Source: Actinomycetota bacterium
GTDB lineage: Bacteria > Actinomycetota > Acidimicrobiia > IMCC26256 > BP-133
Direction of reading: 5' to 3'
Assembly (NCBI GenBank): GCA_030838785.1
Contig: JAUZEY010000111.1
Coordinates: 1-37,405 of the forward strand
DNA length: 37,405 nucleotides
Part shown: one piece after another, positions 823-27,487 of the stretch
Layout: each line of letters starts with the position of its first letter
Numbering within the stretch: position 1 is the stretch's first letter
Program-made: the position numbers and the translations under genes
The notes under the pieces: generated by a model
The model's database searches: none
Seen by the model: only the letters and a program-made list of their open reading frames with translations
Told to the model about the DNA's origin: nothing

Positions 823-845
823 TGGCCTAGCGCACCATCTCGGGC

Positions 846-3178: not shown

Positions 3179-3232
3179 GAAGAGGTGAGCGTACCGCCGC
3201 CACGGCCTCGGGCCCGGTTGGGCGGACGGCGA

Positions 3233-3632: not shown

Positions 3633-3638
3633 TAACAT
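3633..3638 (+). promoter_or_regulatory. Candidate -10 hexamer TAACAT for glpD (possible leaderless transcript)
   Basis: A TANNNT hexamer ends 7 nt before the TTG/GTG start at 3645/3648. No Shine-Dalgarno is visible before glpD. It lies in the lower-GC divergent whiB-glpD spacer. Confidence 0.3.
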
Positions 3639-3644
3639 CCGCCG

Positions 3645-10510: not shown

Positions 10511-10636
10511 GGGGCCACCGCAGCGGTCACAGACCGGAGTGTGGGGGACAGCCGGGTCAGAGGAAATGACCCGAAGGAACTAGTCCTCCGGTGCGATCGC
10601 CCCAAACCGGACATCGGTGCCGGCCGGCGGGGCCGG

Positions 10637-10642
10637 TAGGAT
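10637..10642 (+). promoter_or_regulatory. Candidate -10 hexamer TAGGAT for rnpB
   Basis: A TANNNT hexamer lies 8-9 nt upstream of the first base of the P1 helix of the RNase P RNA. Confidence 0.4.
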
Positions 10643-10650
10643 GACGGTTG

Positions 10651-11038
10651 GTGGTGAGTCGGCCAGGCGGCCGCGTGCCGGCTTGACCGGCCCGAGGAAC
10701 GTCCGGACTCCACAGGGCAAGGTGCTGGGTAACACCCAGTCGAGGTGACTCGCAGGACAGTGCCACAGAAAACAGACCGCCGATGGCGACACACCCCCGG
10801 GGGTGCCGCACAGGTAAGGGTGCAACGGTGCGGTAAGAGCGCACCAGCGCCCGGGGTGACCCGGGCGGCTCGGTAAACCCCACCCGGAGCAAGGCCAGAC
10901 AGGGGGAGGACGGCCCGTCCGACCAAAACCCCCGGGTAGGCCGCAAGAGCCGTCGGGTAACCGCCGGCCGAGAGGGATGGCCGCCTCAGGCGCTACGGCG
11001 CCGAGACAGAATCCGGCGTACAGGCCGGCTCACCACCA
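10651..11038 (+). ncRNA. rnpB: RNase P RNA, bacterial type A
   Basis: Universally conserved P4 strands are present: GAGGAACGUCCGGACUCCACAGGGCA near the 5' end and ACAGAAUCCGGCGUACAGGCC near the 3' end. Also present are ACAGAAAACA and GGUAAGGGUGCAACGGUGCGGUAAGAGCGCACC. P1 pairs 5' GUGGUGAGUCGGCC with 3' GGCCGGCUCACCAC (one G-U). The ends are approximate, within a few nt. Confidence 0.92.
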
Positions 11039-11144
11039 CACCTGTGACCTGCGGAAACGCACCGAAATGGACAGTACGTTCCGTACAGGCCGATCGATCG
11101 CCTGAAGGGCTGGCTAACTGCAGCGATGCGTCGGACGGTCCGGC

Positions 11145-11184
11145 CCGGGACCACATAGGGACCACAAGAACTCGAGTCGGTGCC
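11145..11184 (+). repeat. Copy A of an intergenic repeated element (core CCGGGACCACATNGGGACCACRAGA)
   Basis: The 25-nt core matches 23/25 with 32953-32977 in the same orientation, and weaker similarity continues (CGAG.CGGT.CC). Internally it is a direct repeat of GGGACCAC with 12-nt period. It lies between the rnpB 3' end and the amidase stop. Confidence 0.6.
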
Positions 11185-11219
11185 CGGACAACCTCGTTTC
11201 GCCGGTTCCCGGGGCGACA

Positions 11220-12734
11220 TCATGGCCGTACACCCTTGTCCCCGAATTCGAAGATGAACGGCCGGGCACGGGGAGTTGAGTTCCCGGGGTCCTCGTGCCC
11301 GACGGCCACTGCCGGGACGCGGGCGGCCCATGGGAAGAGATCTTCGAGCTGGCCGGCAAGTCGGAGGAGCGTCGCCTCATCGGCGAAGCGGCCGACGAGC
11401 TGAACACCGACGGGGAGACCCGTTTCGGTCCAGGCGAGGGGCAGGCTCACGGCGGGTTGGCCGGTGATGTTGAACATGGCGGTGAAGGGGCAGTACTCGT
11501 CGAACAGCTTGCGGATCCAGCCTTCGGCGCTGAGGGAGGCGTCATCCTGGTTGAGCTCTCCCAGCCGCCAGGGCGGGCGGGCAGTCGAGGGCAACACCAG
11601 CACGTCGACCGTCTCGAAGTAGGAACCGACCCCGCGGGCGACGGTGTTGCAGCCGACGTGGCTGTCGAGCAACTCGACCGCCGACGTCACCTGCCCGAGC
11701 TCGATCATGGCCATCGTCATGGCCTCGACGGTGTCCGGTGACGGCGGGCAACCGAGGGCTCGCTCGAGCATGGCCGCACGCTGGGCGAGCGCAGCCGCCC
11801 AGCTCGTCATCAACGCCCGATGGAGCACCTCGGGATCGATCTCCGGTCTTGCTTCGACGACGTCATGGCCGACGCGCTCAAGGGCCTTGGCGGTCCCTTC
11901 AACGGCGGAGCGGCACTCCGGAGCCACGTGACAGCCCGACCACGCCTCGGCCGTCCAGCCGATGCGAAGGCGGCCTGACTCGGCGCCCACCTCCTCAACG
12001 TAGGGCCGGACGGGCGGCGGGATCAGGTACTTGTCTCCCGGGACGGGGCCGTGGAGGGCGTCGAGAGCGGCCGCCACATCGCGCACAGTCCGTGCGATGA
12101 CGAAGTCGTGGGCGAATCCGTGGACGGCCTCCCACGCCCCCGGGGCGATCGGGATGCGAGAGCGCGTCGGTTTCATCCCGACCGCACCACAAAGCGACGC
12201 CGGAATCCGGATCGAACCCGCGGCGTCCGTGGCGTGGGCAATGGGGAGCGCCCGAGCGGCCACGAGCGCCGCCGCTCCCCCGCTCGATCCGCCGGCGCTG
12301 AGACCGACGTCCCAGGGGTTGCAGGTCGCCCCGTGGGCTTTGGGCTCCGTGCTGGCGTTGAAGGCGAATTCCGGCGAGCGGCTGCGGGCGATCGCCTTCA
12401 GGCCGGCGGCATGGAAGCGCCGACCCAGATACGAGTCCTCGGCGGCCCTGATCCCTGTTCGGGTCCAACGGCTTCCGTACTGCACGACCTGGCCCTTCAG
12501 GTGAGGGGCCACGTCTTTGAGGGCGAACGGGACGCCGGCCAACGGTGCATCTCCGGGGGGGCCGGCCCCGCCCGTTGGCTCGAAGAGGTCTCCGACCGTG
12601 GCGTGCAGCGCTGGCTCGACGATCTCGATGGCGCGGCGCGCCGCCTCCTCGAGCTCTCCGGGCGTCACCTCCCCCGCTCGGACGAGGGCGGCCAGCCCGA
12701 CGGCGTCATGGTCGGCGTAGTCGCTCAGGTCCAC
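11220..12734 (-). CDS. Amidase (amidase-signature family)
   Basis: 504 aa with the AS signature GGSSGGAAALVAA...ATDAAGSIRIPASLCG. It has a GTG start, is the last gene of the long minus-strand operon, and starts 15 nt after the thiolase stop. Confidence 0.85.
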   Translation of the reverse strand: MDLSDYADHDAVGLAALVRAGEVTPGELEEAARRAIEIVEPALHATVGDLFEPTGGAGPPGDAPLAGVPFALKDVAPHLKGQVVQYGSRWTRTGIRAAEDSYLGRRFHAAGLKAIARSRSPEFAFNASTEPKAHGATCNPWDVGLSAGGSSGGAAALVAARALPIAHATDAAGSIRIPASLCGAVGMKPTRSRIPIAPGAWEAVHGFAHDFVIARTVRDVAAALDALHGPVPGDKYLIPPPVRPYVEEVGAESGRLRIGWTAEAWSGCHVAPECRSAVEGTAKALERVGHDVVEARPEIDPEVLHRALMTSWAAALAQRAAMLERALGCPPSPDTVEAMTMAMIELGQVTSAVELLDSHVGCNTVARGVGSYFETVDVLVLPSTARPPWRLGELNQDDASLSAEGWIRKLFDEYCPFTAMFNITGQPAVSLPLAWTETGLPVGVQLVGRFADEATLLRLAGQLEDLFPWAARVPAVAVGHEDPGNSTPRARPFIFEFGDKGVRP

Positions 12735-12749
12735 GGCGAGAAGTTTGGT

Positions 12750-13946
12750 TCAGGTCGGTTCGACCCGCACGACGGCGGCGGCGCCGGTGTCGCCGGCAGC
12801 GCAGCCGGTGAACAGGCCGGTACCGCCACCCCGGCGGCGGAGGACCTCGATCAGTTCGGCGACCCCGCGGGCCCCCGTCGGTGCCTGGGGGTGGCCGTAG
12901 ACCAGGCTGCAGCCATAAGGGTTCATCGCCTCGGGGTCAATGCCCATCTGCTGGGCGAACCACAGGTCGTTGACGGCGAATGGGTTGTGGGTCTTGATCA
13001 CGTCGACGGCCTCGATGGTGAGGTCGGCGTCGGAAAGGGCCTGGCGGGCGGCGGGAACGGGCGCCTTGGGCATGCGGCCCTTCTCGACGCGGGCGAAGCC
13101 GGTGGCCAGGATGCGGGCGATGCCGGCGCCACCGGATAGTTCCCGGGCCCGGTCCTTCCCGGCCACGATCATCCCGGCCGTGCCGTCGGCGGGGTGGGTC
13201 TGGCTGCCGAAACTGACGACGCCTCCCGGCGCCACCGGGGCGAGCTTGGCCAGCGCTTCGGCGGTCGTGTCGTGGACGCCCTCGTCGGCCTGGACCACGA
13301 GCGCCGGCCCACGCCGGCGCTCGATGTTGACCGGCACCATCCACGGCCGCTGGAAGGCCCGGCCGTCGGCCAGGGCGTCGCGGTACTGCTGATAGCGGAA
13401 GAGGGTCAGGTCGTCGAGCTCCTCCTTGGTCATCCCGCCCTCGGCGGCCACCGCTTCGGCGGTGGCGACCATCGACGTGCCGCCCCAGGGGTCGCGTTCG
13501 AAGGAGTCGAGCACCCACCGCTCCACGTCGGGCGTCCCGCCGGGCCGGGCGCCGCCGGGGTGGATCAGGACGGGCCCGTTGCTGGTGCGGTCGGTGGTGA
13601 CGGCCAGCACGACGGCGCCCGGTTCGAGCGCCACGGTGGCCGCCGCTGCCTCCAGGCAGGCGACACCGGTGGCGCAGGCCTGCGACAGCATGGCGCCGCT
13701 GACGTCGGTGGCGCCGAGGCGGGCGGCCAGCGTCGGGGCGCCGTAGAATGATTCGCGCTGCGGGACCGTCCAGCCCAAGACGAGCCGCGTGATGACGGTG
13801 GGATCGAGGGCGGCCCGGGCCAGGGCATCGCGGGTGACGGCCGCGGCCAGGTCGAGGCTGCTGACGTCAGCCAGCGATCCCTGCCAGCGGACGAACGGCG
13901 AGGACCAGGCCAGCCCGAGCGGGATGCAGGGCGTACCGAGCTTCAT
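12750..13946 (-). CDS. Thiolase-family acetyl-CoA C-acyltransferase
   Basis: 398 aa with candidate catalytic residues in the expected order: SQACATG (nucleophilic Cys), GHPQAPTG (His) and GCAAGD (C-terminal Cys). The ATG overlaps the ligase stop (ATGA at 13943-13946). Confidence 0.85.
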   Translation of the reverse strand: MKLGTPCIPLGLAWSSPFVRWQGSLADVSSLDLAAAVTRDALARAALDPTVITRLVLGWTVPQRESFYGAPTLAARLGATDVSGAMLSQACATGVACLEAAAATVALEPGAVVLAVTTDRTSNGPVLIHPGGARPGGTPDVERWVLDSFERDPWGGTSMVATAEAVAAEGGMTKEELDDLTLFRYQQYRDALADGRAFQRPWMVPVNIERRRGPALVVQADEGVHDTTAEALAKLAPVAPGGVVSFGSQTHPADGTAGMIVAGKDRARELSGGAGIARILATGFARVEKGRMPKAPVPAARQALSDADLTIEAVDVIKTHNPFAVNDLWFAQQMGIDPEAMNPYGCSLVYGHPQAPTGARGVAELIEVLRRRGGGTGLFTGCAAGDTGAAAVVRVEPT

Positions 13947-15319
13947 CAGCGTTCCTCTTTTCCCGTTTCGCCGTTGGCGCGAACATGAACCAGCGGGGTC
14001 TTGTAGGCGCCGCGGGGCAGCGTTCCGGGAGCCACGACCGACACCACCGCCCGGACCTGGAGGCGGCCGCGCAGCTCGGCCTCGATCCGGCGGGCCAGGC
14101 CGGCGTAGCGGTCGGTCTCGAGGCCTTCGGCGGCTTCGATGTCCACGGGGATGGCATCGTCGAAGCGAACCTGATCAGGGCGGTCCTTCCAGATCCGTAC
14201 GTAGGGTTCGACGGCGTCGCCGACGGCGGAGAGGGCGACGTCGCGGATGGCGGTCGGGAAGACGTTCATCCCCTTGTAGATCAGCATGTCGTCGGTCCGC
14301 CCGATGCAGCGGATCCGCGGTGACGTGCGCCCGCAGCGGCAGTCGACGCCGGTGACCACGACGTGGTCGGACGAGCGGTAGCGCAGCATCGGCGTCGCCT
14401 CCCGGGCGAACGTCGTGTAGACGACCTCGCCGGTGGCGCCCTCCCGCCAGCGGCGCTGCGCTCCGGTGGCGGGATCGATGAGCTCGATGGCCACGCCCCG
14501 CTGGGCGCAGAAGTGCATGCCGCGTTCATCGTCGCACTCCCCCCATACCGCCGACAGCACGTCGGCCAGCCCCATGACCTCCCGCACGTGGTCGAGGCCC
14601 CACCCGGACCGGACCTTCTCCCGGATCTCAGGCTGACCGAAGCCCGGCTCGCCACCGCCGAGGAACTTGGTGATGCCGAGGGAGGCGGCGGGGACGCCGA
14701 TCAGGTCCTCGCAGTGGTCGGTCAGGTACGTGCCGAACGAGGCGGTGGACAGGACGGCGTTGACCTGGAGCCGGGGAAACGAGCGGAGGATGCGTTCGGT
14801 CGGGAACCCGCCGAGCCAGGCCAGGGTGGCGCCGATGGTGCGGAAGCCGTCGGCGTAGGGCAGGCCGCCGGCGACACCGGGGAGGCCTACAAGGTGGGCG
14901 ACGACGTCGTCGGGACGGATGCCGGCGGTGAAGAACACGGCGGCGATCGTCTGACGCCACAGCTCGAGGTCGGCGGCAGTGAGGGCGTAGTGCAGCGGAT
15001 GGCCCGTCGTCCCCGACGACGACACGACCTGGACGATCTCCGACAGCGGCACCGCCTGATGGCGCCCGAACGGCTCGCCCGGCGAATTCTCCTCCTGGGA
15101 GCGGCGCAGCTCGTCCTTGGTGGTGAACGGCAACTCGGCCAGCAGCTCCAGGGACCGGGGGCTCCCCGCCGGCCGGGCGGGCGAGTCGACGCGGTCCTTG
15201 TGGAAATCGGACCGGGCCCGCAGCCCGTCGAGGAAGTGGACGAGGTGACCGGCCTGCCAGGCCTCCACCTCGGACCACGGCGCCGTCTCCAGCTCCTCGT
15301 CCCAATACCGCCGGTCCAT
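13946..15319 (-). CDS. Phenylacetate-CoA ligase (PaaK)/coenzyme F390 synthetase-family adenylate-forming ligase
   Basis: 457 aa with the AMP-binding P-loop SSSGTTGHP and PaaK-like architecture (N-terminus MDRRYWDEE...E.WQ, C-terminal small domain). The ATG at 15319 is preceded by AAGGAG 8 nt upstream. The longer ORF start at 15343 would overlap the upstream gene. Confidence 0.8.
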   Translation of the reverse strand: MDRRYWDEELETAPWSEVEAWQAGHLVHFLDGLRARSDFHKDRVDSPARPAGSPRSLELLAELPFTTKDELRRSQEENSPGEPFGRHQAVPLSEIVQVVSSSGTTGHPLHYALTAADLELWRQTIAAVFFTAGIRPDDVVAHLVGLPGVAGGLPYADGFRTIGATLAWLGGFPTERILRSFPRLQVNAVLSTASFGTYLTDHCEDLIGVPAASLGITKFLGGGEPGFGQPEIREKVRSGWGLDHVREVMGLADVLSAVWGECDDERGMHFCAQRGVAIELIDPATGAQRRWREGATGEVVYTTFAREATPMLRYRSSDHVVVTGVDCRCGRTSPRIRCIGRTDDMLIYKGMNVFPTAIRDVALSAVGDAVEPYVRIWKDRPDQVRFDDAIPVDIEAAEGLETDRYAGLARRIEAELRGRLQVRAVVSVVAPGTLPRGAYKTPLVHVRANGETGKEER

Positions 15320-15332
15320 GGTTGCCAGCTCC

Positions 15333-16136
15333 TTAGGGGACAAGCCCGTCCGTCACCCGACGGCAGGCCTCCAGCACCTCGGCGAACCTGCACGACCCGG
15401 GGACGACGCCAGCCGTCAGCGTCAGTGGCGTTCCCGGCGGCGGCGCCGCCCACTCCTTCGGCTCGGCCGCCAATGTGACGCCCCGCAACCGGTTGGCCGG
15501 ACCGGCGATCGTCGTTCCCTCGGGGCCGCACAACCCGATCGATGGCGGGACGCCGGACAGCGCGTCGGCGGTGGCATGGCGCACGATCATCACCGGCGCC
15601 GCCTGGTGGAAGCGCGTCACATTGACCAGCGGCGTCACCACCGACCGCCAGGCGTCGAGGACGGCGGGGGGAGGCAGCGCCTCCTCCACGACGACGACGA
15701 GGTTGACGCCGGCTTCAAGGAACCGCTTCAGCACTCCCAGAAGCCGCGCTCCCACGTCCTCCAGCACCGCCGCCGCCACCTCGTCGGCCAACGATCCCGC
15801 TTCCGCCTGCTCGGCCATCCGGGCCGGGCCGGTCAGGACGGCGACGAGCACCGGCTCGCCTGCTGACGTCGTGGCCAGCCGGCCGGTGGCCTCCACTGCC
15901 GCCTTCACCGTGTCGCCCGACCAATCACCGCCGAAGACCGTGATGGCGTCGGTGCCGAGCGCCTGGTGCAGCGCCGTGAGGCCCTTGGCCAGCTTCGTCG
16001 GGTCGGTCAGGAAGGCGTCGAGGGGCAGCGCCTCGATTTCGGCCGCCTGGGCCAGCACCAGCGGGGCGAACAACCCGGGCTGGGCCCGGCCGCTCCGAGC
16101 GAGCAACCGGGCCCGGGCACGGGGGGTGGGAGGCAT
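15333..16136 (-). CDS. Hypothetical protein, operon-internal (tentatively a truncated uroporphyrinogen-decarboxylase/MtaA-like TIM-barrel fold)
   Basis: This 267-aa ORF is wedged between the hydantoinase-B-like gene (stop 16149) and the ligase gene. The sequence pattern (AEIEALPLDAFLTDPTKLAKGL...ALGTDAITVF ... FLEAGVNLVVVVEEA) recalls URO-D-like proteins, but the protein is short and I see no clear metal ligands. The fold assignment is weak. Confidence 0.5.
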   Translation of the reverse strand: MPPTPRARARLLARSGRAQPGLFAPLVLAQAAEIEALPLDAFLTDPTKLAKGLTALHQALGTDAITVFGGDWSGDTVKAAVEATGRLATTSAGEPVLVAVLTGPARMAEQAEAGSLADEVAAAVLEDVGARLLGVLKRFLEAGVNLVVVVEEALPPPAVLDAWRSVVTPLVNVTRFHQAAPVMIVRHATADALSGVPPSIGLCGPEGTTIAGPANRLRGVTLAAEPKEWAAPPPGTPLTLTAGVVPGSCRFAEVLEACRRVTDGLVP

Positions 16137-16148
16137 GGCGTCGATGTC

Positions 16149-18209
16149 CTATGGGCGCATGATCGGCTGGAGCGGCCGGGCGTCGGGCCAAGACCCGTAA
16201 TAGGCCAGGATCTCCTCCGGCGGGCGCTTCTGGGACCACTCGGCTTCGAACTCGGCGTAGGGCCGGCCCCGCTGGAGGCGGGCCTGCCGCTCGGCCGCCC
16301 GCCGCTCCTCGGTGGCGACGGGGTCGACCCGCCGGCGCTCGGGGTTCCAGGCGACGTGGTGGATACGCTCGGCCGTCCACTCCGAGATGTTCCCGTTGAG
16401 AAGGTCCTCCTCGACCGCCGCGGGGTCCCGCTCGAGGGGGTCGCCGTAGCCGGCGCCGCCGGTGGCGAAGCCGATGGTGACGATGTCGTTCTGGTTGTAG
16501 GGCCGGACGGAGCGGCCCTGGAACTCGTTGTCCCACTGCCCGTTGATGGAGTGCTCGGCCAGCATCGTGGGCACGTCCATGTCCATGGTGTCGCCGGCGG
16601 CCAGCCGCTCGACGAGGTCGGCGCCCCGGACGCTGATCCCGGGAATGGTGCAAGGGGCGTAGCCGCCGAACAGGGGTTGCGGCGTCTGGATCTTCGAGTT
16701 GTCGGCGATGGCCATCATGTAGACCGCCGGTACGTGGTGGGCCACCCACACCTGGGCGGTCCCGACCCCGCCGCGGTACTTGCCGTGCCCGCAGGAGTCC
16801 TTCCAGTGCTGCGACACCGGGATGAAGAGCGGGAACTCGTTCTCGACGTGTTCCACGTCGGGGGCCCGGCCGGCCGGGCACCATGGGAAGCCGAAGGCAT
16901 TCATGCCGTCGGACGTGGGACGGCCACCCTGCCCTTCGGTGTTGATGGTGTAGGCCAGCATGTCGGCGAAGGGCATCTGCCACTGTGAGAGCCCGGCGAG
17001 CACGAGGGCGTTCCCGCCATTGCCCATCGACGCCCCCGCCTGCTGCCAGGCGGCGGTGGAGAAGAACGCCTTGGCGAAGGTGTTGTGCACCGCGCTCATG
17101 ACGCCGGTGGCGATCATGACTGAGCACGACGTCGCCGCCCGCACGTCGGGGTAGAGGCACGACCCCGGCTCGAAGACGAAGTCGATCGGGGCGAACGTGG
17201 CGTTGCTGATCGGCAGGTCGTGGAAGACGTACTCGTAGACGAAGTTGGCGAAGTGGCCGATCGCCGCCTGGGGATGGGCGTTGTAGGACGACGCCGTCTC
17301 CGGGCCGGTGCCGGTGAAGTCGACGGTCAGGTGGTCGCCGTCCTTCACCAGCGTCATCACGCACGACCGGACGAGACCCTGGTTCATCCCCACCGAGTCG
17401 GCAAAGGTGACGCAGCGGTACTTCCCGTCGGGCCAGGACTGGATCCGCTTGCGGGCTCCCTCCTCGGCGACCTGGAGCATCTTGCGGAACAGGCCGACGA
17501 CGGCGTCGACGCCCTCCCGCTCGCACATCTCCACCACCCGGGTCCGCACCCGGTCGGCGGTGGTGCAGCGGGCCTTGAGGTCGACGGCCACCATCTGCGG
17601 CGCCCGGATCCCGAAGGCCTGGAAGACGTTGAGGATGTCCTCCCGCAGTTCGAAATTCTCACCGATCTTCGTCGGCGGCAGGTTGAGGCCCTCCTCGAAG
17701 CGGGCCGTGGCCGAGACCGGCATGCCGCCGGGTTCCGACGCCCCGGTCTCGGTGGTGTGGACCAGCGCCGCCGTCCAGGCGATGAGCTGGCCCTCGAAGA
17801 AGACCGGCATGGCCACCATCTGGTCGGGGTTGTGGATGCCGCCGTAGACGGCGTCGTTGGCGAACCACAGGTCGCCGTCCTTCACGCCGGGGTTCTTGGA
17901 GTAGTTGGCCAGGATGTACTTGATGATGAGGGGCGGGATGACGGCGTGGAGGTAGCTGCCGCAGGAGCCGTTGACCATGTCGCCGTCGGCGGTGAAGATC
18001 CCCACCAGCGAGTCGCCGGCGATCCCCATGGCGGAGCGGCAGGAACGGACGAAGACGTCCATCCCCTCGTCGAGGATGTCGTTGGTCCGCTGGAAGCCGA
18101 TCTCGAACTCCCCGAGGCCGATCTGCTCCACGCACTTGAGCTCGTGGTCGGTGGCCGGCACCGGCTTCAGCCAGTGAAGCTTCTCCTCCAGCGTGGGGAT
18201 GCCGCTCAC
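16149..18209 (-). CDS. Hydantoinase B/oxoprolinase-family subunit, acetone/acetophenone-carboxylase catalytic-subunit type
   Basis: 686 aa with GDLWFANDAVYGGIHNPDQ, KYRGGVGT and a C-terminus ...EEILAYYGSWPD, all reminiscent of acetone carboxylase alpha. The GTG start overlaps the upstream stop (GTGA at 18206-18209), and GGGAGGGAGG lies just upstream. Confidence 0.88.
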   Translation of the reverse strand: MSGIPTLEEKLHWLKPVPATDHELKCVEQIGLGEFEIGFQRTNDILDEGMDVFVRSCRSAMGIAGDSLVGIFTADGDMVNGSCGSYLHAVIPPLIIKYILANYSKNPGVKDGDLWFANDAVYGGIHNPDQMVAMPVFFEGQLIAWTAALVHTTETGASEPGGMPVSATARFEEGLNLPPTKIGENFELREDILNVFQAFGIRAPQMVAVDLKARCTTADRVRTRVVEMCEREGVDAVVGLFRKMLQVAEEGARKRIQSWPDGKYRCVTFADSVGMNQGLVRSCVMTLVKDGDHLTVDFTGTGPETASSYNAHPQAAIGHFANFVYEYVFHDLPISNATFAPIDFVFEPGSCLYPDVRAATSCSVMIATGVMSAVHNTFAKAFFSTAAWQQAGASMGNGGNALVLAGLSQWQMPFADMLAYTINTEGQGGRPTSDGMNAFGFPWCPAGRAPDVEHVENEFPLFIPVSQHWKDSCGHGKYRGGVGTAQVWVAHHVPAVYMMAIADNSKIQTPQPLFGGYAPCTIPGISVRGADLVERLAAGDTMDMDVPTMLAEHSINGQWDNEFQGRSVRPYNQNDIVTIGFATGGAGYGDPLERDPAAVEEDLLNGNISEWTAERIHHVAWNPERRRVDPVATEERRAAERQARLQRGRPYAEFEAEWSQKRPPEEILAYYGSWPDARPLQPIMRP

Positions 18210-20455
18210 GACGCCCTCCCTCCCGCCGTGGCCAGCGCCTCGGCGTCGATCTTCTGGCTGTGGGTCGAGACCGGCGCGGCGAGCGATTCGAGCACGCCGA
18301 GGCCGTACCGGTCGATGGAGTACCGCATCCCGGGTGGGACGACGATCGTGGTCAAGGGCGCTTCGACGACGGCTGGGCCGGCGATGACGTTGCCGGGCCG
18401 GAGCGAGTCGGCGTCGTACAGCGCGGTCTCCACCCAGTCCCGCGTCTCCGGCCAGTAGGCCTGTCGTGACCCGGTGATGGCCGCCTTGGCGTCCTCACCC
18501 TCGAGAGCCGACTCGGGAAGAACGGGCTTCGGCGTCGGCACCGTCACCTTGAGCACGAAGTTGTCGAGGTACACACCGCCGGGCTTGTTGACCACCAGCG
18601 GGCTGAACGCCTCGGAGAACTCCTTCTCGAAGTCCTCGTAGACCGAGATGACGTCCTTCTCGCTCTCCAGGAACAGGACGGACGAGGCCATGCGCTTCAC
18701 GTTGACCTGGCCGCCGTAGAGCATGTCGAGCTCCAGGCTGAAGGTGGCTCCGTCGGCCGGGAGACCCTCGGCCAGCAGGTCCTGGCGGGCCTGGTCCATC
18801 AGCTGGCGGACGGTGGCGTTGAACGTCTCGTAGTCCTCGGTCCACTTCTGGGTGAGCGACTCGAGGAAGATCATCCTTTTCGACGTCTCGTAGACGTGGA
18901 CGATGTCCATGATCGAGCTGCCCAGCGCGCAGAACACCGGCGCGGAGGGGAACACGACCGCCTTGGCCAGGTCGCCGAGGTAGCCGGACACGTGGGTCGG
19001 CCCGGCGCCGCCGAAGGCGAAGAGGATGAAGTCCTCGGGGTGGTAGCCCCGGAGGTGGATTTCCCGCTTGATGGCCGAGGCCATGTTCTGGTCGACAATC
19101 CGACGGATCAGCGCCGCCGCCTCCTCGACCGGCACACCGAGTGGCTCGGCGATCCGCTCCCGGATGGCCCGTTCCGCCTTGGCCCGGTTCAGCGGCATGC
19201 GCCCGCCGTAGTAGGTGTCAGGGTTGATGTAGCCGAGGACAACGTCGGCGTCGGTGACGGTCGGCTCGGTCCCGCCCTGGTCGTAGCACACCGGGCCGGG
19301 CATCGAGCCGGCGCTGCGGGGCCCGACGTTGAGCTGGTTGCCGATCGGGTTGATCCAGGCGATGGAGCCGCCCCCGGCGCCGATCGACAGGGTCTGCAGC
19401 ATCGTGATGCTGACCATCCAATGGTCGATGATCGGCCGGAACTCGTAGTTGCGGACGGAGTCGCCGACCACCAGGCCGATGTCGAAGCTCGTGCCGCCCA
19501 TGTCGCCGGCCACCACGTTGTGGTAGCCGAGGCTCTGGGCCAGGTGGTACGAGCCCATGAGGCCCGACACCGGCCCCCCGTTGTAGGTCCGGCTGGCGGT
19601 GGTCTTGAACACCTCGCCGGAGCCGCCGGAGTTGTGGATCATGAGGAAGCTGCCCCGGTAGCCGGCCTCCCGCAGCTTGTCCCAGGTGGACGACAGCTCC
19701 GTCTGCATGGCCCGCTGCAGGTAGGCGTCGAGCACGGCCGTCATCGTCCGCTCGTACTCGCCGAGCTTGGCCACCACCTGCGACGACAGCACCACCGGCA
19801 GGTAGCCGATGTGAAACGCCTTGTACTCCTCCCGGATGATCTCCCGGACGCGCCGCTCGTGGGCCGGGTTCATGAAGCTCCACAGCAGCGACACCACGAT
19901 GGCCCGGGCGCCGCGCTCCATGAGGATGCGGAGCTTGCGGCGCACGTCGTCCTCGTCGAGGGGCCGCATGACCGTCCCGGTGGAGTCGACCCGCTCCTTC
20001 ACACCCACGATGAGACGCCGGGGGACGAGCGGCTCGGGCTTGTGCTGGACGGCCAGGTTGCGCCGCTCGGCCAGGCGGGTGCCGTCGGTCCACTGGGCGC
20101 CGCGGCCGATGAGGACGGCGTCCTCGTGGCCCTCAGTGGTGATGAGCCCGACCCGGGGACCCTTCCGTTCGATGAGGCGGTTCATCGCCACCGTCGTCGA
20201 GTAGCGGACGACGTCGATCCGGGGCAGGAGCTCCTCGAGCGTGAGGCCGGCTTCGGCGGCGCCCTCCTCGATGGCGTTCATGAAGCACACCGACAGGTCA
20301 TAGGGCGTGGTCGGCGCCTTGGCAATGGTGCGTTCCCCGTCGAGGGTCAGGACGAAGTCGGTGAACGTGCCGCCGACGTCGATGTCGATCGAGTTGAGCC
20401 GGTTCCCAGCCATGCTCTCGGCAGGGGAAGTCGTCGTCACAGGGCCACTCGTCAC
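18206..20455 (-). CDS. Hydantoinase A/oxoprolinase-family subunit (paralogue 1, ATP-binding type)
   Basis: 749 aa with IDIDVGGTFTDFVL (ASKHA phosphate-1 loop) and DMGGTSFDIG (second ATPase loop). The GTG start overlaps the gamma stop (GTGA at 20452-20455) with GGGAGG upstream. An alternative ATG lies at 20413. Confidence 0.88.
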   Translation of the reverse strand: MTSGPVTTTSPAESMAGNRLNSIDIDVGGTFTDFVLTLDGERTIAKAPTTPYDLSVCFMNAIEEGAAEAGLTLEELLPRIDVVRYSTTVAMNRLIERKGPRVGLITTEGHEDAVLIGRGAQWTDGTRLAERRNLAVQHKPEPLVPRRLIVGVKERVDSTGTVMRPLDEDDVRRKLRILMERGARAIVVSLLWSFMNPAHERRVREIIREEYKAFHIGYLPVVLSSQVVAKLGEYERTMTAVLDAYLQRAMQTELSSTWDKLREAGYRGSFLMIHNSGGSGEVFKTTASRTYNGGPVSGLMGSYHLAQSLGYHNVVAGDMGGTSFDIGLVVGDSVRNYEFRPIIDHWMVSITMLQTLSIGAGGGSIAWINPIGNQLNVGPRSAGSMPGPVCYDQGGTEPTVTDADVVLGYINPDTYYGGRMPLNRAKAERAIRERIAEPLGVPVEEAAALIRRIVDQNMASAIKREIHLRGYHPEDFILFAFGGAGPTHVSGYLGDLAKAVVFPSAPVFCALGSSIMDIVHVYETSKRMIFLESLTQKWTEDYETFNATVRQLMDQARQDLLAEGLPADGATFSLELDMLYGGQVNVKRMASSVLFLESEKDVISVYEDFEKEFSEAFSPLVVNKPGGVYLDNFVLKVTVPTPKPVLPESALEGEDAKAAITGSRQAYWPETRDWVETALYDADSLRPGNVIAGPAVVEAPLTTIVVPPGMRYSIDRYGLGVLESLAAPVSTHSQKIDAEALATAGGRAS

Positions 20456-20847
20456 AGGGACACCTCCCGGCCCTCGGCCACCGCCAGGCGGCCGTCCTCG
20501 ATCCGGATCTCACCGCTGGCCAGGCGGGCCTTCAGCCGGTCGACGTCGAGCTCGATGTCGACGGTGATCGGATGGCCGGGCGGCAGGTACTCCGTTTCGA
20601 CCTGGGCGCCGCAGCCGGGGCAGTAGAACTCCAGGATCCGAACCCAGTCCGGATCAGGCGAGAACGTGAACGCCCCTTCGATGAGCGGCGGATGGACCTC
20701 GCGGGGGTCGCGCTCGTAGACGAGGCACCCTTCCTTGTAGGGCTGCCGGGCTGACACCAGCTCGGTGTCGCACCGGTTGCAGCGCCACGCCTCGGCGTCG
20801 AGGTCGAGGTCGAGGTACTCGGTGAAGCGGATGCGGGTCGCGGTCAT
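20452..20847 (-). CDS. Acetone-carboxylase gamma-subunit-family small zinc protein
   Basis: 131 aa with two CxxC pairs (WRCNRCDTEL and FYCPGCGAQV) and the motif YLPPGHP, as in AcxC/Apc-gamma-type subunits. The ATG at 20847 is preceded by GGGGGAGGA. Confidence 0.82.
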   Translation of the reverse strand: MTATRIRFTEYLDLDLDAEAWRCNRCDTELVSARQPYKEGCLVYERDPREVHPPLIEGAFTFSPDPDWVRILEFYCPGCGAQVETEYLPPGHPITVDIELDVDRLKARLASGEIRIEDGRLAVAEGREVSL

Positions 20848-20855
20848 TCCTCCCC

Positions 20856-22814
20856 CTATGCCTTGCGCAGGACGCCGTTGGCGAATTCGTCGATGGCCAG
20901 TGACCAGCCCGGTGGCACGAGGCACGTCATGGTCTCCCCCACCGCCAGCGCCGGCCCCTCGACTGCGGCGCGCCCGATCAGGCTGGCCCAGTCGTAGACC
21001 GCCGTGTGGTGGCGGGCGCCGCGGAGCATCACCGGACGGCGGACGAGCGGCGGTGGTGCCGTCGATGCGTCCGGCGACGGGTGGCCGACGGGCTCGTAGG
21101 CCCCGACCGGGAAGCGGGCCCGGATCCGGGCGACTTCGACGTGACCGCCCCCGGCGTCGGACAGCGCGTCGTCGATCGTCCCGGCCCGGACGATTCTTCC
21201 GGGGGACGCCCCCGAGCCCCCGGGGCGGGCGGCCGACCCGTTGGCCGCCAGATCGAGCTCGACCTCGATGGTGGCGGCGTCGGGGTCGAACCCCTCGGCC
21301 TCGAGGTCCCGGCGGGCGGTGGCGACGAGGTCATCGGCTGCGGCGCGGGCGTCGGAGATTCCGGCGAGGCTGCGCTCGTAGACGTGCACGACGTCGGCGA
21401 CCGACGACCCGAAGGCGGCGAAGACCGGCCCGAGGCCGAACACCCGGGCGGTGGAGATGCCGAGCCGCTCCGCCACCGGCGCGGCGAACATCGACCCGTT
21501 GCCGCCATAGGCGAACAGTGTGACATCGGCGGCGTCGAGGCCGGCCTTGCCCAGCGTGGAGCTGACGAGGTCGGCCACCATGCCCACCGCCGTGTCGGCC
21601 ACTATGGTGGCCGCTTCCTCCGCCGAAACGCCGAGCGGCTCGGCCAGCTGTTTGGTGAGGGCCTCCTCGGCCCGGGCCAGGTCGAGGGTGCGCCGCCCGC
21701 CGAGGAAGCGGGTGGGGTCGAGGTAGCCGAGGATCAGGAAGGCGTCGGTGACCGTGGCCTGGTCGCCGCCGAGGCCGTAGCAGGCCGGGCCGGGAGCGGC
21801 GCCCATGCTGTCGGGGCCGAGCCGCACGCCGCCGCCGTCGACGGGCCGGGCGACGCTCCCGCCGCCGAGAACGGCGGAACGCAGCAGCGGTAGCGACGCC
21901 CGCACGGAGATGTCGAAGATGTCGCCGTCGCGGGTGAACATCGGTTCACCGCCGAGGACGACGCTGGCCTTGGCGGTGGTCCCACCGACGTCGAGGCAGA
22001 GGACGTCGGACAGGGCGTAGCGGCGGGCCAGGTAGGCCGACGCGTACGTCCCGAACACCGGACCGGACTCGATCGTGTCGAGCGCCTTCGTCTTGCCGAC
22101 CCGGGCGACGCCGCCGTTGATGTGACCGACGAGGAGCGGCCCGTCCCAGCCTTCGTCGTACTTCAGCATGTCCTCGGCCTGGAACAGCGCGGAGGCCAAT
22201 CGGGTGTGGGTGTAGGCGTTGATGAGGGAGCAGTGGGTACGGGTGGCGTCGTCGTGGACCTGGGCCATCTCGCTGCCCATCACGACCGGTACGGCGCCCA
22301 GGTAGTGGTCGGGGTACTGGGCCTCGATGACGCCGGCCACGGTCCGCTCGGACGCGTTGTCGGGGAAGGCGCCGTCGAGGCTCACGCAGATGCGCCGCAC
22401 GCCCTCCTCGAACAGCCTCTTGACAGCGGTGAGGACGTCGACCTCGGTCGGGTTCTCGGGCAGGCCGATCACGTTGTGCTCCGCCACCAGCGTCCCGACC
22501 GCCGGCGATGGACCGGCGCCGTAGAGGTCGCCCTCGTGGCCGTGGCGGACCAGCAGCCCGACCTTCGCCCCCGTTCCCTCGCCCAGCACGTTGGAGGTGA
22601 TCGTCGACGACCACCGGATGAACGACACGTGGTCGAGGAACCCGGCGACATCCTCCTCGTAGCCGAGCAGTCGGGCCGCCTCCACCAGAACCTGACGGAA
22701 CGAGACGGTGAAGTCGTGCGGGGTGGTGTCGACCTTGATGGCGTGGAGCTCGCTGCCGTCGGCCACCAGTCCGTCGGTCATGGTGCCGCCGGTGTCGATG
22801 TCGACCGTGTACAT
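20856..22814 (-). CDS. Hydantoinase A/oxoprolinase-family subunit (paralogue 2)
   Basis: 652 aa starting MYTVDIDTGGTMTDGLV, with a second loop LDVGGTTAKASV and the C-terminus GPALAVGETMTCLVPPGW. The ATG at 22814 is preceded by GGAAGGGGAGG. The upstream 22815-23057 part of the ORF is non-coding read-through. Confidence 0.86.
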   Translation of the reverse strand: MYTVDIDTGGTMTDGLVADGSELHAIKVDTTPHDFTVSFRQVLVEAARLLGYEEDVAGFLDHVSFIRWSSTITSNVLGEGTGAKVGLLVRHGHEGDLYGAGPSPAVGTLVAEHNVIGLPENPTEVDVLTAVKRLFEEGVRRICVSLDGAFPDNASERTVAGVIEAQYPDHYLGAVPVVMGSEMAQVHDDATRTHCSLINAYTHTRLASALFQAEDMLKYDEGWDGPLLVGHINGGVARVGKTKALDTIESGPVFGTYASAYLARRYALSDVLCLDVGGTTAKASVVLGGEPMFTRDGDIFDISVRASLPLLRSAVLGGGSVARPVDGGGVRLGPDSMGAAPGPACYGLGGDQATVTDAFLILGYLDPTRFLGGRRTLDLARAEEALTKQLAEPLGVSAEEAATIVADTAVGMVADLVSSTLGKAGLDAADVTLFAYGGNGSMFAAPVAERLGISTARVFGLGPVFAAFGSSVADVVHVYERSLAGISDARAAADDLVATARRDLEAEGFDPDAATIEVELDLAANGSAARPGGSGASPGRIVRAGTIDDALSDAGGGHVEVARIRARFPVGAYEPVGHPSPDASTAPPPLVRRPVMLRGARHHTAVYDWASLIGRAAVEGPALAVGETMTCLVPPGWSLAIDEFANGVLRKA

Positions 22815-22877
22815 AGCCTCCCCTTCCGGTCGCCGGAACGGATCGAGCCTCGCATTCTGTCTTCCCGACGACCATGT

Positions 22878-22900
22878 ACCGACCGGACAAAAGACCGACC
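22878..22900. promoter_or_regulatory. Direct repeat ACCGACC-N9-ACCGACC in the divergent carboxylase/regulator spacer (candidate operator)
   Basis: The sequence gtACCGACCggacaaaagACCGACCag sits in the 178-bp lower-GC intergenic region between the starts at 22814 (-) and 22993 (+). Confidence 0.3.
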
Positions 22901-22992
22901 AGCCGAATTGTTCAAGGAGTACAGACGTCGGACGGGCGGCGCGGTTTAGGCTGCGTCCCGGGCAGCAGCCATTGGCCCGGGGGGACCAATCC

Positions 22993-24810
22993 ATGGCGGC
23001 CGACATCGAGGAGAGCCAGCGCAGGATCAGCGCCCTCGTGCGGGTGGGCCGGGCCATGGTGTCCGCCGCCGACTACGAGCTGGCCCTCGGGACGCTCATC
23101 GAGACCGTGAGCCGGCTCCTCGACGTGGAGACCGGCGGGTTCCTCGTCTACGACCCGGCCCACGACGAGCTCGTCCTCCAGCAGCCCGCCTTCGGCATCG
23201 AGGATCCGAAGCTCATCGCCGAGTACCACGTCCCGCTGTCCGCCGGAGGGAACGCCGTCCGCGTGTTCCTTTCGCAACGGGCCTACCTCTGCAACGACGC
23301 CGAGCACGACCCCCGGATGATCCACCGGTTCGTGGAGATGTTCGGCGCCCGCAACATCCTGTCGATCCCCCTCATCGTGGAGGACCGACCCATCGGCGTG
23401 TTCCACGCCATCAACAAGCGCAGCGGCGACTTCGACCACGCCGACCTCGACCTCCTCACCCTCGTGGCGCCGCTCATGGCCGTCAGCGTCTCGTCGGCCC
23501 AGATGTTCCGGGAGCTGCGGGAGAAGAGCCGCCTGCTGGAGCGGGCCGTGTTCCTCCAGGCGGAGCTGTCCCGCACCGCCCTCGACGCCCCCGGTATGGA
23601 ACCCCTGGCCGAGCGCCTCGCCGACCTCATCGCCCGGCCGGTCATGGTCCTCGACTCCGCGCTGCGGCCGATGGCCAGCGCCCGGTGGCCGGAGGAGCAG
23701 CTGCCGAACCAGTCGTGGCTCCGCCGCGGGCGCCTGCCCGATCCCGGCGGCACCGGGACCGGCCGCGGCGGGAACACGGCCGGCGACGCCGCCGATCATC
23801 CCGTCGTGACTCCGATCGCGGTCGGGACCCATTTCGGCGGGTACCTGGCCGTGCTGCCGGGCGGGGCCAGCCTCGACGTCCTCGACACCCGGGCGATCGA
23901 GCACGCGGCGGGGATCTTCGCCCTCGAGATGCTCCGGGAGCAGAGCGCCTACGAGGTGGAGTCCCGCCTGAAGGGCGACGTCCTCCAGGACCTGTTCACC
24001 GGCAGCTACCGGGACGAGGACGAGGCCGCCGGGCTGCTCCGCCGGCTGGGCTACACCCTGCCCGGCGCCTACCGGGTCGTCCGGGTGGAGGCCGCCGCCG
24101 CCTCCGGTGACCGGGAGGGCCGCCCCGCCCGCTGGCAGGAGGAGATGCAGGGGCCCCACTCCCGGCTGTACGGCGCCCTCAACGAGGTGTGCGTCAAGGT
24201 CCTCGGCGTGGCGGCGGTCGCGCCGTGGAGGTCGGGGTTCCTGCTGCTGATGCCGGCGCTGAACCCCGAAGGTGACTTCCAGGTCGCCCAGGAGCTGTTC
24301 GAGCACTTCCGATTCGTCGGCGAGCAGGTGCGGCCCGGGCTGAGACTCTCGCTGTGCCTCGGCTCGGCGGTGGCGGCCGTGGGGGCGCTCGGCCAGTCGC
24401 TCGAGGAAGCCGAACGGGCCCTGGCGGTGGCCCGCACGCTGGAGATCGTGGACCGGCCCCTGGCCTTCGAGCACCTCGGCGTCTACCGGGTCCTCCTCGG
24501 CCCCAACAACGCCCGCGACCGGCGCGACTTCGTCGACGAGGCCCTCGGCAGCGTCGTCCGCTACGACCTGGAGCACGGCACCGACCTCGTCGACACGCTG
24601 CGGGCCTGGGTGGCCGCCGACTACAACGTCGGAGCGGCGGCGTCGCGGATGTTCGTCCATGCCAACACCCTCAAGTACCGCCTCAAGCGGATCCGGACGC
24701 TGATCGGTGGGGATCCGTCCCGCGGCGACCTGCGCCTCCAGATCGAGCTGGCCCTCAAGATGCTCGACCTCCCCCGCCTCACCTCGATCGCGCCGCCAGC
24801 CGAGCGCTGA
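22993..24810 (+). CDS. GAF-domain / PucR-family transcriptional regulator
   Basis: 605 aa. The N-terminal region is GAF-like (LIETVSRLLDVETGGFLVYDP..LVLQ...IPLIVEDRPIGVFHAINK). The C-terminus is a PucR HTH (LVDTLRAWVAADYNVGAAASRMFVHANTLKYRLKRIRTLIG). It is divergent from the carboxylase operon. Confidence 0.85.
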   Translation: MAADIEESQRRISALVRVGRAMVSAADYELALGTLIETVSRLLDVETGGFLVYDPAHDELVLQQPAFGIEDPKLIAEYHVPLSAGGNAVRVFLSQRAYLCNDAEHDPRMIHRFVEMFGARNILSIPLIVEDRPIGVFHAINKRSGDFDHADLDLLTLVAPLMAVSVSSAQMFRELREKSRLLERAVFLQAELSRTALDAPGMEPLAERLADLIARPVMVLDSALRPMASARWPEEQLPNQSWLRRGRLPDPGGTGTGRGGNTAGDAADHPVVTPIAVGTHFGGYLAVLPGGASLDVLDTRAIEHAAGIFALEMLREQSAYEVESRLKGDVLQDLFTGSYRDEDEAAGLLRRLGYTLPGAYRVVRVEAAAASGDREGRPARWQEEMQGPHSRLYGALNEVCVKVLGVAAVAPWRSGFLLLMPALNPEGDFQVAQELFEHFRFVGEQVRPGLRLSLCLGSAVAAVGALGQSLEEAERALAVARTLEIVDRPLAFEHLGVYRVLLGPNNARDRRDFVDEALGSVVRYDLEHGTDLVDTLRAWVAADYNVGAAASRMFVHANTLKYRLKRIRTLIGGDPSRGDLRLQIELALKMLDLPRLTSIAPPAER

Positions 24811-24833: not shown

Positions 24834-25535
24834 TCAGCTGTTGCCGTTGCCGGCCACTTGGCCGACGTGGGCCTCGGGGCGGTGGTGCAGCGGCCCCCCG
24901 TCCGACAGCAGGAAGATCACGAGGTCGGCGATCTCCTCGGGGGTACGGAACCCGTCGATGCTCACGCCGGCGTCGAGGTCGACCTCCCGGAGGCGGCCCG
25001 GGCAAACGGCATTGACCCGGATCTTGCGCCGTTCGCATTCCAGCGCCGCCACCTTCGTCAGGCCGAGCACACCGTGCTTGGAGGCGGCGTAGCCGCCGAA
25101 GCCGACCGCCCCGACCACCGCCATGTCGCTGGCCATGTTGACGACGGCGCCGCCGTCGCGGACGTGGGGCAGCGTGTGCTTGAGGCCGAGGAACGTGGGC
25201 CGCAGGTTGGCGTCGATCATGGCGTCGAAGTCCGCCTCCGACGACTCCGTCAGCAGCCGGGCGGGCCCCTCGACGTCGACATTGTTGAAGAACAGGTCGA
25301 CGCCGCCCCACAGCTCGCAGGCCCGGGCGACGTAGCCGGCGACGTCCTCCGAGCGGGTGAGGTCGGCGACGAACGTCTCGACGCCGCCGAGGTCGCGGTC
25401 GAGGGCGGCGAGGGCCTCGGCGTCGGGGTCGACCACCAGCAGCGTCGTGCCGCGACTCCACAGCGCCCGAGCCACGGCGGCCCCGACCTCGCCGGCGGCG
25501 CCGGTCACGATGGCCACCTTGTCTGCGAACGGCAT
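24834..25535 (-). CDS. Short-chain dehydrogenase/reductase (classical SDR)
   Basis: 233 aa with TGAAGEVG (TGxxxGxG), NNVD and YAASK (YxxxK). The ATG at 25535 is preceded by GGAGGAG. It starts 49 nt downstream of the preceding gene on the same strand. Confidence 0.85.
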   Translation of the reverse strand: MPFADKVAIVTGAAGEVGAAVARALWSRGTTLLVVDPDAEALAALDRDLGGVETFVADLTRSEDVAGYVARACELWGGVDLFFNNVDVEGPARLLTESSEADFDAMIDANLRPTFLGLKHTLPHVRDGGAVVNMASDMAVVGAVGFGGYAASKHGVLGLTKVAALECERRKIRVNAVCPGRLREVDLDAGVSIDGFRTPEEIADLVIFLLSDGGPLHHRPEAHVGQVAGNGNS

Positions 25536-25584
25536 GGGTCTCCTCCGGGCGCTCGACTGTCGCTCGGTCGGGTCGTCAGGGCCT

Positions 25585-25965
25585 TTAGATGCGGACCTCG
25601 CGCCGCAGATTCTCGGGCGGGACAGGCAGGGCGGCGTCCTCACGCAGCGTCGCCTCCAGCAGCTGGGTCACGTACTCGATCTGCAGCCCCAGCGCCTGGA
25701 ACCGCTCCGCCATCACCTCCTGGGCGGCCTCGAGGTCGACGAGCCGGCGGCGGTTTTCGATGTCGTCCTGCGATCGCACGAGCGCGAGGCCCACGCCGGC
25801 GCAGAGGAGCGCCCCGACGCCGCCGCCCAGCACGTAGGGCAGCTGGATCGACACGAACACCTCGTCGGCGATGCTGGCGTACCCGACGCCGAGCACGACC
25901 ACCGCCGCCACCAGCAGCGTGATCCCGGCCACCAGCCGGCCCCGCTCCCGCATGAGACGCTTCAC
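25585..25965 (-). CDS. Small membrane protein: two TM helices plus a C-terminal coiled-coil-like helix (hypothetical)
   Basis: 126 aa with hydrophobic segments LVAGITLLVAAVVVLGVGYA and GGGVGALLCAGVGLALV, followed by a charged heptad-like tail. The GTG start overlaps the upstream stop (GTGA at 25962-25965) and GAGGAGG lies 6 nt upstream. Confidence 0.55.
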   Translation of the reverse strand: MKRLMRERGRLVAGITLLVAAVVVLGVGYASIADEVFVSIQLPYVLGGGVGALLCAGVGLALVRSQDDIENRRRLVDLEAAQEVMAERFQALGLQIEYVTQLLEATLREDAALPVPPENLRREVRI

Positions 25966-27482: not shown

Positions 27483-27487
27483 GTCGC

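Follow-up and report, generated by a model that had tools for sequence, protein, structure and literature searches.

A probable acetophenone carboxylase operon with its ligase and thiolase genes in a contig of an Actinomycetota bacterium

Contig JAUZEY010000111.1 of the Actinomycetota bacterium assembly GCA_030838785.1, a stretch of 37,405 nt that we call the window, carries at 11220-22814 eight consecutive and tightly packed open reading frames (ORFs) on the minus strand, facing a divergent GAF-PucR regulator gene at 22993-24810. The first seven genes of this string very probably encode a five-subunit, biotin-independent and ATP-dependent carboxylase of aryl methyl ketones that belongs to the acetophenone carboxylase (Apc) family, together with the next two enzymes of the pathway, a coenzyme A (CoA) ligase and a thiolase. 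This reading is built on homology, conserved residues, gene order and synteny, and on these grounds we regard the locus as a complete and intact copy of the known acetophenone-carboxylase pathway operon, an ordinary member of a widespread family. The G+C content of the window is about 72%, and a WhiB gene in its left flank indicates an actinobacterial origin. The nearest protein matches of the window Apc4 (the apcD-like product) belong to Actinomycetota/Acidimicrobiia metagenome-assembled genomes (MAGs), with 96-97% identity.

Read along the minus strand, the string begins with an apcA-like gene for the Apc alpha' subunit, a proposed bicarbonate kinase (20856-22814; 652 aa; matching NCBIfam ApcA over the full length and PDB chain 5l9w_b), followed by an apcB-like gene for the Zn-ribbon gamma subunit (20452-20847; 131 aa; Acetone_carb_G and 5l9w_C) and an apcC-like gene for the alpha subunit, a proposed ketone kinase (18206-20455; 749 aa; 5l9w_B). 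The apcD-like gene for the beta subunit (16149-18209; 686 aa; 5l9w_A and NCBIfam ApcD) precedes an apcE-like gene for a short form of the epsilon subunit, a predicted alpha/beta barrel resembling uroporphyrinogen decarboxylase (URO-D) (15333-16136; 267 aa; NCBIfam ApcE and 9fou_A). Then come a bal-like gene for a PaaK-type benzoylacetate-CoA ligase (13946-15319; 457 aa; AMP-binding_C_2 and the ligase of the Aromatoleum-type contig L077), a gene for a proposed benzoylacetyl-CoA thiolase (12750-13946; 398 aa; Thiolase_N/C) and one for an amidase-signature amidase, a variable neighbour (11220-12734; 504 aa; Pfam Amidase). The Pfam domains, in the same order, are Hydant_A_N/Hydantoinase_A, Acetone_carb_G, Hydant_A_N/Hydantoinase_A/Hydant_A_C and Hydantoinase_B for the first four products, and no domain (267-aa ORF), AMP-binding_C_2, Thiolase_N/C and Amidase for the last four. 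The initial annotation of this DNA had described eight co-directional, tightly packed genes of these lengths, and all the ORFs and their Pfam domains were confirmed.

Score separation assigns the carboxylase to the acetophenone type, and not to the acetone carboxylase (Acx) or the hydantoinase/oxoprolinase types. The alpha subunit scored 1200 bits with 5l9w_B, to which it is 71% identical over 713 residues with zero gaps, against 391 bits for Acx, 371 for caprolactamase and 323 for N-methylhydantoinase. For beta, the full-length match to 5l9w_A reached 1167 bits, compared with 166 for Acx and 109 for caprolactamase, and the gamma subunit scored 193 bits with 5l9w_C and 24 with Acx gamma. Altogether, Apc models and structures score 3- to 10-fold above the other branches, and the NCBIfam ranking agrees (ApcC 1289 vs CapA 496; ApcD 1248 vs CapB 145); the branch placement rests on this separation among structures and NCBIfam models and not on a tree with outgroups. 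The alpha' subunit aligned with 5l9w_b at 723 bits (residues 1-651 to 1-656), being more divergent than the other core subunits. With these scores and with all five subunits encoded, the earlier preference for an Apc-type carboxylase over a hydantoinase/5-oxoprolinase stands, as does the naming of the 131-aa protein as the gamma subunit, which matches Pfam Acetone_carb_G at 2e-34 in addition to 5l9w_C and retains its four cysteines (equivalents of Cys22/25/75/78).

The residues that define the Apc sites are likewise in place. The beta metal-site residues D65, H123, D126 and H148 and the alpha' polar-site residues E248, D274 and K281 are retained, the alpha fingerprint motif R/KERiDsxG reads KERVDSTG, and the ASKHA motifs are found in both alpha (DIDVGGTFTD, GDMGGTSFD, SMPGPV) and alpha' (DIDTGGTMTD, LDVGGTTAK, AAPGPACYG). 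In fact, all the metal, ATP-site and pocket residues tested are retained except for two conservative changes. The published criteria for annotating an Apc are the gene order apcABCD(E), grouping with the Apc branch, subunit lengths and signature motifs (PMC5214803); the lengths given there are about 670-685 aa for beta, about 130 aa for gamma and about 730 aa for alpha, Acx gamma being about 50 aa longer. In the window, we found the order alpha'-gamma-alpha-beta-epsilon, Apc-branch grouping by score, the signature motifs, an epsilon subunit and alpha'/gamma/alpha/beta lengths of 652/131/749/686 aa, vs 658/129/732/684 aa in the PDB Apc chains.

The 267-aa product had been described earlier as an unknown, URO-D-like orphan. 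The likeness to URO-D was borne out and the orphan status was not: by profile and model comparison, the protein is identified as ApcE, the fifth Apc subunit, with a predicted URO-D-like fold. NCBIfam ApcE matches it at 1.8e-35 (123 bits), and BLASTP against the ApcE of the Aromatoleum-type locus L077 gave 31% identity with an E value of 3e-20. A profile of 39 family members matched PDB 9fou_A, "acetophenone carboxylase epsilon subunit", at 1.1e-49, and the same profile matched the URO-D-family methyltransferase MtaA at 8e-4; longer members of the family (300-320 aa) match Pfam URO-D directly. The AlphaFold2 model is compact, with a predicted local distance difference test score (pLDDT) of 94 and a predicted template-modelling score (pTM) of 0.92, and its best Foldseek matches were the 9fou chains (TM 0.80-0.83), followed by MtaA and uroporphyrinogen decarboxylases (TM about 0.6). 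Epsilon is needed for Apc activity (PMC5214803). The deletion site that makes this epsilon short lies after the second beta-strand. The closest relatives also have a short epsilon, which is therefore a real lineage variant.

To place the operon among its relatives, the window proteins were mapped on 76 genome loci retrieved by means of an Apc4 alignment, none of them from Aromatoleum, and the survey was repeated with hidden Markov models on translated ORFs after adding contigs L077-L080; the denominators given here are the loci with enough flanking sequence. The epsilon gene follows apc4 in 63 of 65 loci. The 2017 structure paper restricted close ApcE orthologues to Nevskia and Rubrobacter (PMC5214803), and epsilon is therefore far more general than was then stated. 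A ligase gene is present in 28/61 loci and a thiolase gene in 18/56, whereas epsilon, ligase and thiolase occur together in 15/56, in loci that span Acidimicrobiia, Actinomycetes, Burkholderiales, Nevskia, Roseiarcus, Thermogemmatispora and Solirubrobacteraceae. Proteobacteria, Actinomycetota and Chloroflexota all include loci in which apc1-5 are followed by the ligase and then by the thiolase. The initial annotation had the carboxylase operon fused to a complete CoA-activation/thiolysis module; with these counts, that is a common architecture of the family.

Contig L077 serves as the Aromatoleum-type reference, as it carries P0058, which represents an Apc4 cluster and shares 97% identity with the crystallised ApcD. 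Its genes run in the order response regulator and PAS histidine kinase, apcA-E, a 464-aa PF14535 ligase and two short-chain dehydrogenase/reductase (SDR) genes, which is the published apcABCDE-bal layout with AdiRS-type regulators (PMC4729919). Among the closer relatives, the Apc-alpha of contig L079 is 95% identical to that of the window, and the Apc4 of L050 (Acidimicrobiia MAG123), the nearest relative at genome level that has long flanks, is 89% identical. L002, L050 and L079 likewise have the regulator, epsilon, ligase and thiolase, with 55-95% identity. In L050, an XRE-type helix-turn-helix gene and then boxB come after the thiolase (15694-17943); its BoxB product, a benzoyl-CoA 2,3-epoxidase, scores 786 bits with TIGR03225, above the cut-off of 499. 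In L037, a Salinisphaeraceae MAG, boxB is likewise found close to the apc genes (12668-14098). Apc-like clusters are known from the Actinomycetota, namely from Rubrobacter xylanophilus (PMC5214803), Paraconexibacter (PMC11737030) and Rhodococcus ruber Chol-4 (PMC6498646), and acetophenone carboxylase and benzoylacetate-CoA ligase are names already given to such proteins in databases.

The ligase gene directly follows the epsilon gene, and its product carries PF14535 (AMP-binding_C_2) and is 60% identical, over 445 aa and full length, to the 464-aa ligase encoded after apcE at L077:10807-12201. Homologues are named "phenylacetate-CoA ligase/benzoylacetate-CoA ligase" by JGI. Since it scores under the PaaK equivalog cut-offs (192/700 and 154/646), the protein is not a phenylacetate-CoA ligase proper, and its position and likeness to the L077 enzyme classify it as a ligase of the Bal type. 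No explicit statement on the protein family of Bal was found in the Apc literature searched. A PaaK-type ligase had been listed as something that sets this operon apart, a view that has to be given up, because the Aromatoleum-type apc-bal operon also encodes a PaaK-type ligase (PF14535) and the ligase type is thus a shared feature.

In the thiolase, the Cys/His/Cys catalytic residues align with those of 4dd5. The protein reads NPFA where a NEAF motif is usual. It falls under every NCBIfam thiolase cut-off (best 199/240), and its best match among solved thiolases reaches 140 bits, with roughly 30% identity by eye. Orthologues with 49-85% identity occupy the same place after the ligase in distant phyla, vs the roughly 30% identity to the best solved thiolase, and they therefore form a dedicated thiolase subfamily. 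With a Bal-type ligase and a Thiolase_N/C protein that keeps its catalytic residues, the proposal that the operon supplies the downstream steps of the pathway is upheld. The thiolase of the acetophenone pathway in Aromatoleum is "so far unknown" (PMC4729919), and no thiolase gene was found in the apc-bal operon of the Aromatoleum-type locus L077; outside Aromatoleum, the pathway is commonly encoded as one apcABCDE-bal-thiolase unit, which makes a particular thiolase subfamily the candidate for the benzoylacetyl-CoA thiolase.

The junctions reported earlier were confirmed from the sequence. There are stop/start overlaps of the form GTGA at 20452-20455 and 18206-18209 and ATGA at 13943-13946, the last being the thiolase start over the ligase stop, and the remaining gaps fall within the 8-15 nt stated: 8 nt between apc1 and the gamma gene, 12 nt between apc4 and the epsilon gene, 13 nt between the epsilon and ligase genes if the ligase begins at ATG 15319, and 15 nt between thiolase and amidase. 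This ATG is the most likely start of the ligase (457 aa), as in a 99%-identical homologue; the ORF could extend to TTG 15343. Shine-Dalgarno-like sequences (GGAGG/AGGAG) stand ahead of most starts, with GGGGAGG upstream of the apcA-like ATG; no such sequence was found before the GTG start of the amidase. No terminator-like hairpin was detected inside the gene string, the first on that strand being at 11028-11013, after the amidase; this is weak evidence, because terminator-like sites are no commoner here than in shuffled sequence. A promoter scan gave no promoter-like sites, a type of scan that is uninformative for a high-GC actinobacterium. From the arrangement of the genes, we infer that the string is co-transcribed.

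By homology to the Aromatoleum enzyme, a path from ketone to acyl-CoA can be proposed. The ApcC-like alpha subunit would spend one ATP to convert the ketone to its phosphorylated enol form, and the ApcA-like alpha' subunit would use a second ATP to activate bicarbonate to carboxyphosphate, such that two ATP would yield two ADP overall. Beta and the Zn-ribbon gamma are expected to form the structural core or scaffold, and the URO-D-like epsilon, as a required component, would couple the two half-reactions. The product would be a beta-keto acid, benzoylacetate if acetophenone is the substrate; the PaaK-type, Bal-like ligase would then convert it to the CoA thioester, and the operon thiolase would cleave the thioester to benzoyl-CoA and acetyl-CoA.

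Several points weigh against this reading. All five subunits fall under their NCBIfam equivalog cut-offs (832/1250, 211/250, 1289/1500, 1248/1500 and 123/450 for ApcA-E), and for this reason their exact function would not be transferred automatically by the NCBI curators. The cut-offs appear to be tuned to close Aromatoleum/Azoarcus orthologues, and missing them lowers confidence in the exact substrate and not in family membership. In the alpha ketone pocket, 5 of the 7 proposed residues are identical and two are changed, L81M and F281Y (residues 91 and 291 of the window alpha), in all Gram-positive-type loci. Epsilon is without about 36-55 residues of Aromatoleum ApcE (267 vs 303 aa), and no benzoyl-CoA pathway genes were found in the 37-kb window. 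Moreover, the assignment of acetophenone to alpha and of bicarbonate to alpha' in Aromatoleum Apc was tentative in the source paper, which in 2017 also urged caution in assigning functions to distant members (PMC5214803), and only one Apc has been characterised. With the scores under the cut-offs and a single characterised Apc, the exact substrate stays at the level of a prediction.

Some of these same points would fit an enzyme in which the same machinery acts on another methyl or alkyl ketone, the ligase and thiolase giving the corresponding aroyl-CoA. Candidates are acetophenones substituted on the ring (hydroxy-, amino- or methoxy-), propiophenone, a heteroaryl ketone or a ketone freed from an amide by the amidase. 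The pocket pair is fixed as M/Y in 29/29 Actinomycetota, Chloroflexota and Dormibacterota loci, often with Thr345 replaced by Ser, and is L/F in all of the 39 or more proteobacterial loci, the Aromatoleum type included; the sub-threshold scores of every subunit, the single characterised family member and the amidase, which lies 15 nt downstream in the same orientation and has an orthologue near the L079 cluster too, also speak for another substrate. The pocket changes, however, are conservative, with the other five residues and their surroundings kept in an alignment without indels, and the M/Y split tracks phylogeny and may thus be drift; it may also mark a specificity shift. In addition, the amidase is strand-switched or absent in the closest relatives, and BoxB, which acts on unsubstituted benzoyl-CoA, is encoded shortly after the thiolase in L050, a locus of the M/Y type. 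Since BoxB acts on benzoyl-CoA, its presence beside the L050 and L037 clusters fits benzoyl-CoA as the product, and the M/Y pair together with the adjacent BoxB in L050 favours acetophenone, or a close analogue from which benzoyl-CoA would be formed. A different ketone substrate therefore seems unlikely to us. Slightly more doubtful still is a stronger form of this idea, by which the Gram-positive-type Apc would be a functionally distinct subclass whose natural substrate is not acetophenone; its marks would be the Met/Tyr alpha pocket, the operon thiolase, the GAF-PucR regulator and, in this lineage, the short epsilon, and its substrate a substituted or heteroaromatic aryl ketone, possibly made with the help of the amidase or of an alpha/beta hydrolase.

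Readings outside the Apc family fare much worse. Pfam returns only generic Hydantoinase_A and Hydantoinase_B domains and an amidase gene is adjacent, as might be expected of an ATP-dependent amidohydrolase of the hydantoinase/oxoprolinase/lactamase branch that breaks down cyclic amides together with the amidase. Enzymes of that branch (Hyd) have two subunits and are without gamma, alpha' and epsilon (PMC5214803), however, whereas all five Apc subunits are encoded here; caprolactamase and N-methylhydantoinase score 3- to 10-fold under Apc, and the 686-aa beta has the Apc length and not the roughly 570-580 aa of Hyd. This reading is effectively refuted, and we leave it next to no chance. An acetone carboxylase of the AcxABC type, acting on a small aliphatic ketone, is just as improbable: an Acetone_carb_G gamma subunit is present and Acx and Apc both carboxylate methyl ketones, but Acx has one alpha-type subunit, a gamma gene after the beta gene, a beta of about 720-776 aa and a gamma of about 168 aa, and its chains score 391/166/24 bits against 1200/1167/193 for Apc, which effectively refutes this reading as well. 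An aryl methyl ketone carboxylase of the Apc family, with acetophenone or a close analogue as the favoured substrate, remains the reading that we prefer.

The regulator gene on the plus strand (22993-24810) encodes a 605-aa protein with GAF, GGDEF_2 and PucR-type HTH_30 domains in Pfam. The domains of the divergent GAF-PucR regulator noted earlier were confirmed, and its start was moved: the ORF opens at 22708, and the start chosen by homology is ATG 22993. The protein is 91% identical to the 600-aa divergent regulator of L079, and a divergent GAF-PucR orthologue lies beside apc1 in 9 of 48 loci, all of Actinomycetota or Dormibacterota; it is likely that this protein serves as a ketone-responsive regulator in Gram-positive lineages. 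With both starts set by homology, the divergent intergenic region measures 178 bp (22815-22992) and is a promoter/operator candidate. Within it lies a block that L079 and L050 also keep, GCAGCcTAAACcGC ... GACAAT-N~16-CTTTTGTC..GGTACATGG, which is a putative operator/promoter for the GAF-PucR regulator. A sigma-54 activator had been taken as the point of comparison for this regulator, which does not hold, the Aromatoleum apc operon being assigned to AdiRS (PMC4729919).

The amidase matches Pfam Amidase at 8e-79 and contains GGSSGG. Its 15-nt distance from the thiolase gene, with no intervening hairpin, makes it probable that it is co-transcribed in the window. As a general partner of the operon, as the initial annotation had it, the amidase was rejected on the neighbourhood survey. 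In L079, an alpha/beta hydrolase gene comes after the thiolase, and next to it lies a 63%-identical amidase orthologue on the opposite strand; the operons of L002, L050 and another close relative have no amidase gene beside them. After the thiolase, SnoaL and MarR genes occur in this last relative, and genes for a molybdenum hydroxylase and a MOSC protein in L002. The amidase is accordingly a recurrent neighbour in part of the lineage, not a fixed member of the operon. Beyond it, about 700 bp (10511-11219) of apparently non-coding DNA with lower G+C separate the amidase from a GGDEF-EAL gene at 9158-10510. The left flank at 1-9074 holds housekeeping-type genes (XdhC, a TrpD-like phosphoribosyltransferase, WhiB, glycerol-3-phosphate dehydrogenase, an FAD-linked oxidase and an FGGY kinase), and no aromatic-catabolic genes were found in it.

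On the other side, an SDR oxidoreductase gene (24834-25643, minus strand; adh_short) converges with the regulator gene, and the SDR-regulator-apc arrangement recurs in close relatives (L079 and another contig). No specific likeness to (S)-1-phenylethanol dehydrogenase was found among the PDB matches, the best of which are generic FabG and 3-hydroxybutyrate dehydrogenases; from its conserved position in close relatives, a role as alcohol-to-ketone dehydrogenase is possible but weakly linked. Further on, the product of the minus-strand gene at 25962-27491 (509 aa) has a signal peptide at its N-terminus and a membrane anchor at its C-terminus, and no Pfam or NCBIfam match was found for it. The start codon of this gene overlaps with the end of the ABC ATPase gene ahead of it, and the gene seems to close a Liv-type ABC transporter operon whose genes for a binding protein, two permeases and two ATPases lie at 27488-32732. 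A plus-strand ORF at 25357-26805 was rejected as a gene in favour of this minus-strand ORF with its signal peptide and C-terminal anchor.

Apc-like operons in Actinomycetota were already known, and our understanding of the enzyme class is unchanged by this locus. Of modest interest are the operon-linked thiolase subfamily, the near-universal epsilon, the pocket pair, the short epsilon and the GAF-PucR regulator. The lineage-dependent positions 81 and 281 of the pocket are candidates for specificity mutagenesis, which is relevant to the use of Apc as a biocatalyst in the carboxylation of inert methyl ketones; with a naturally short epsilon, structural studies could start from a smaller construct.

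Among known systems, apcABCDE-bal of Aromatoleum aromaticum EbN1 (EC 6.4.1.8; 5L9W, 9FOU) has the same order of alpha', gamma, alpha, beta, epsilon and PaaK-type ligase, and the Zn-ribbon cysteines, beta metal site, alpha' polar site and alpha fingerprint of the Aromatoleum type are all kept in the window. The two differ in that the Aromatoleum operon is without a thiolase and is regulated by the AdiRS two-component system (PMC4729919), whereas the window operon includes a thiolase and faces a divergent GAF-PucR gene; epsilon has 303 aa in Aromatoleum and 267 aa here, and L81/F281 are replaced by Met/Tyr. In the window, an amidase is appended, and there are no ebd/ped (ethylbenzene dehydrogenase) genes nearby. 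The hosts differ as well, an aerobic-type actinobacterium in our case and a denitrifying betaproteobacterium in the other. The other Actinomycetota Apc-like clusters and L002, L050 and L079 share the core operon and the M/Y signature, but the genes after the thiolase differ from one another among L002, L050, L079 and the further close relative. AcxABC (5M45, 5SVB) belongs to the same superfamily and shares the ATP-dependent enol-phosphate chemistry and the Zn-ribbon gamma, although it has three subunits, another gene order, a longer beta and gamma, conversion of ATP to AMP and scores 3- to 8-fold lower. CapAB, 5-oxoprolinase and N-methylhydantoinase (6YRA, 7HK5) have homologous alpha and beta subunits and also activate a carbonyl with ATP; unlike the window enzyme, they are two-subunit hydrolases without gamma, alpha' and epsilon, and their scores are far lower.

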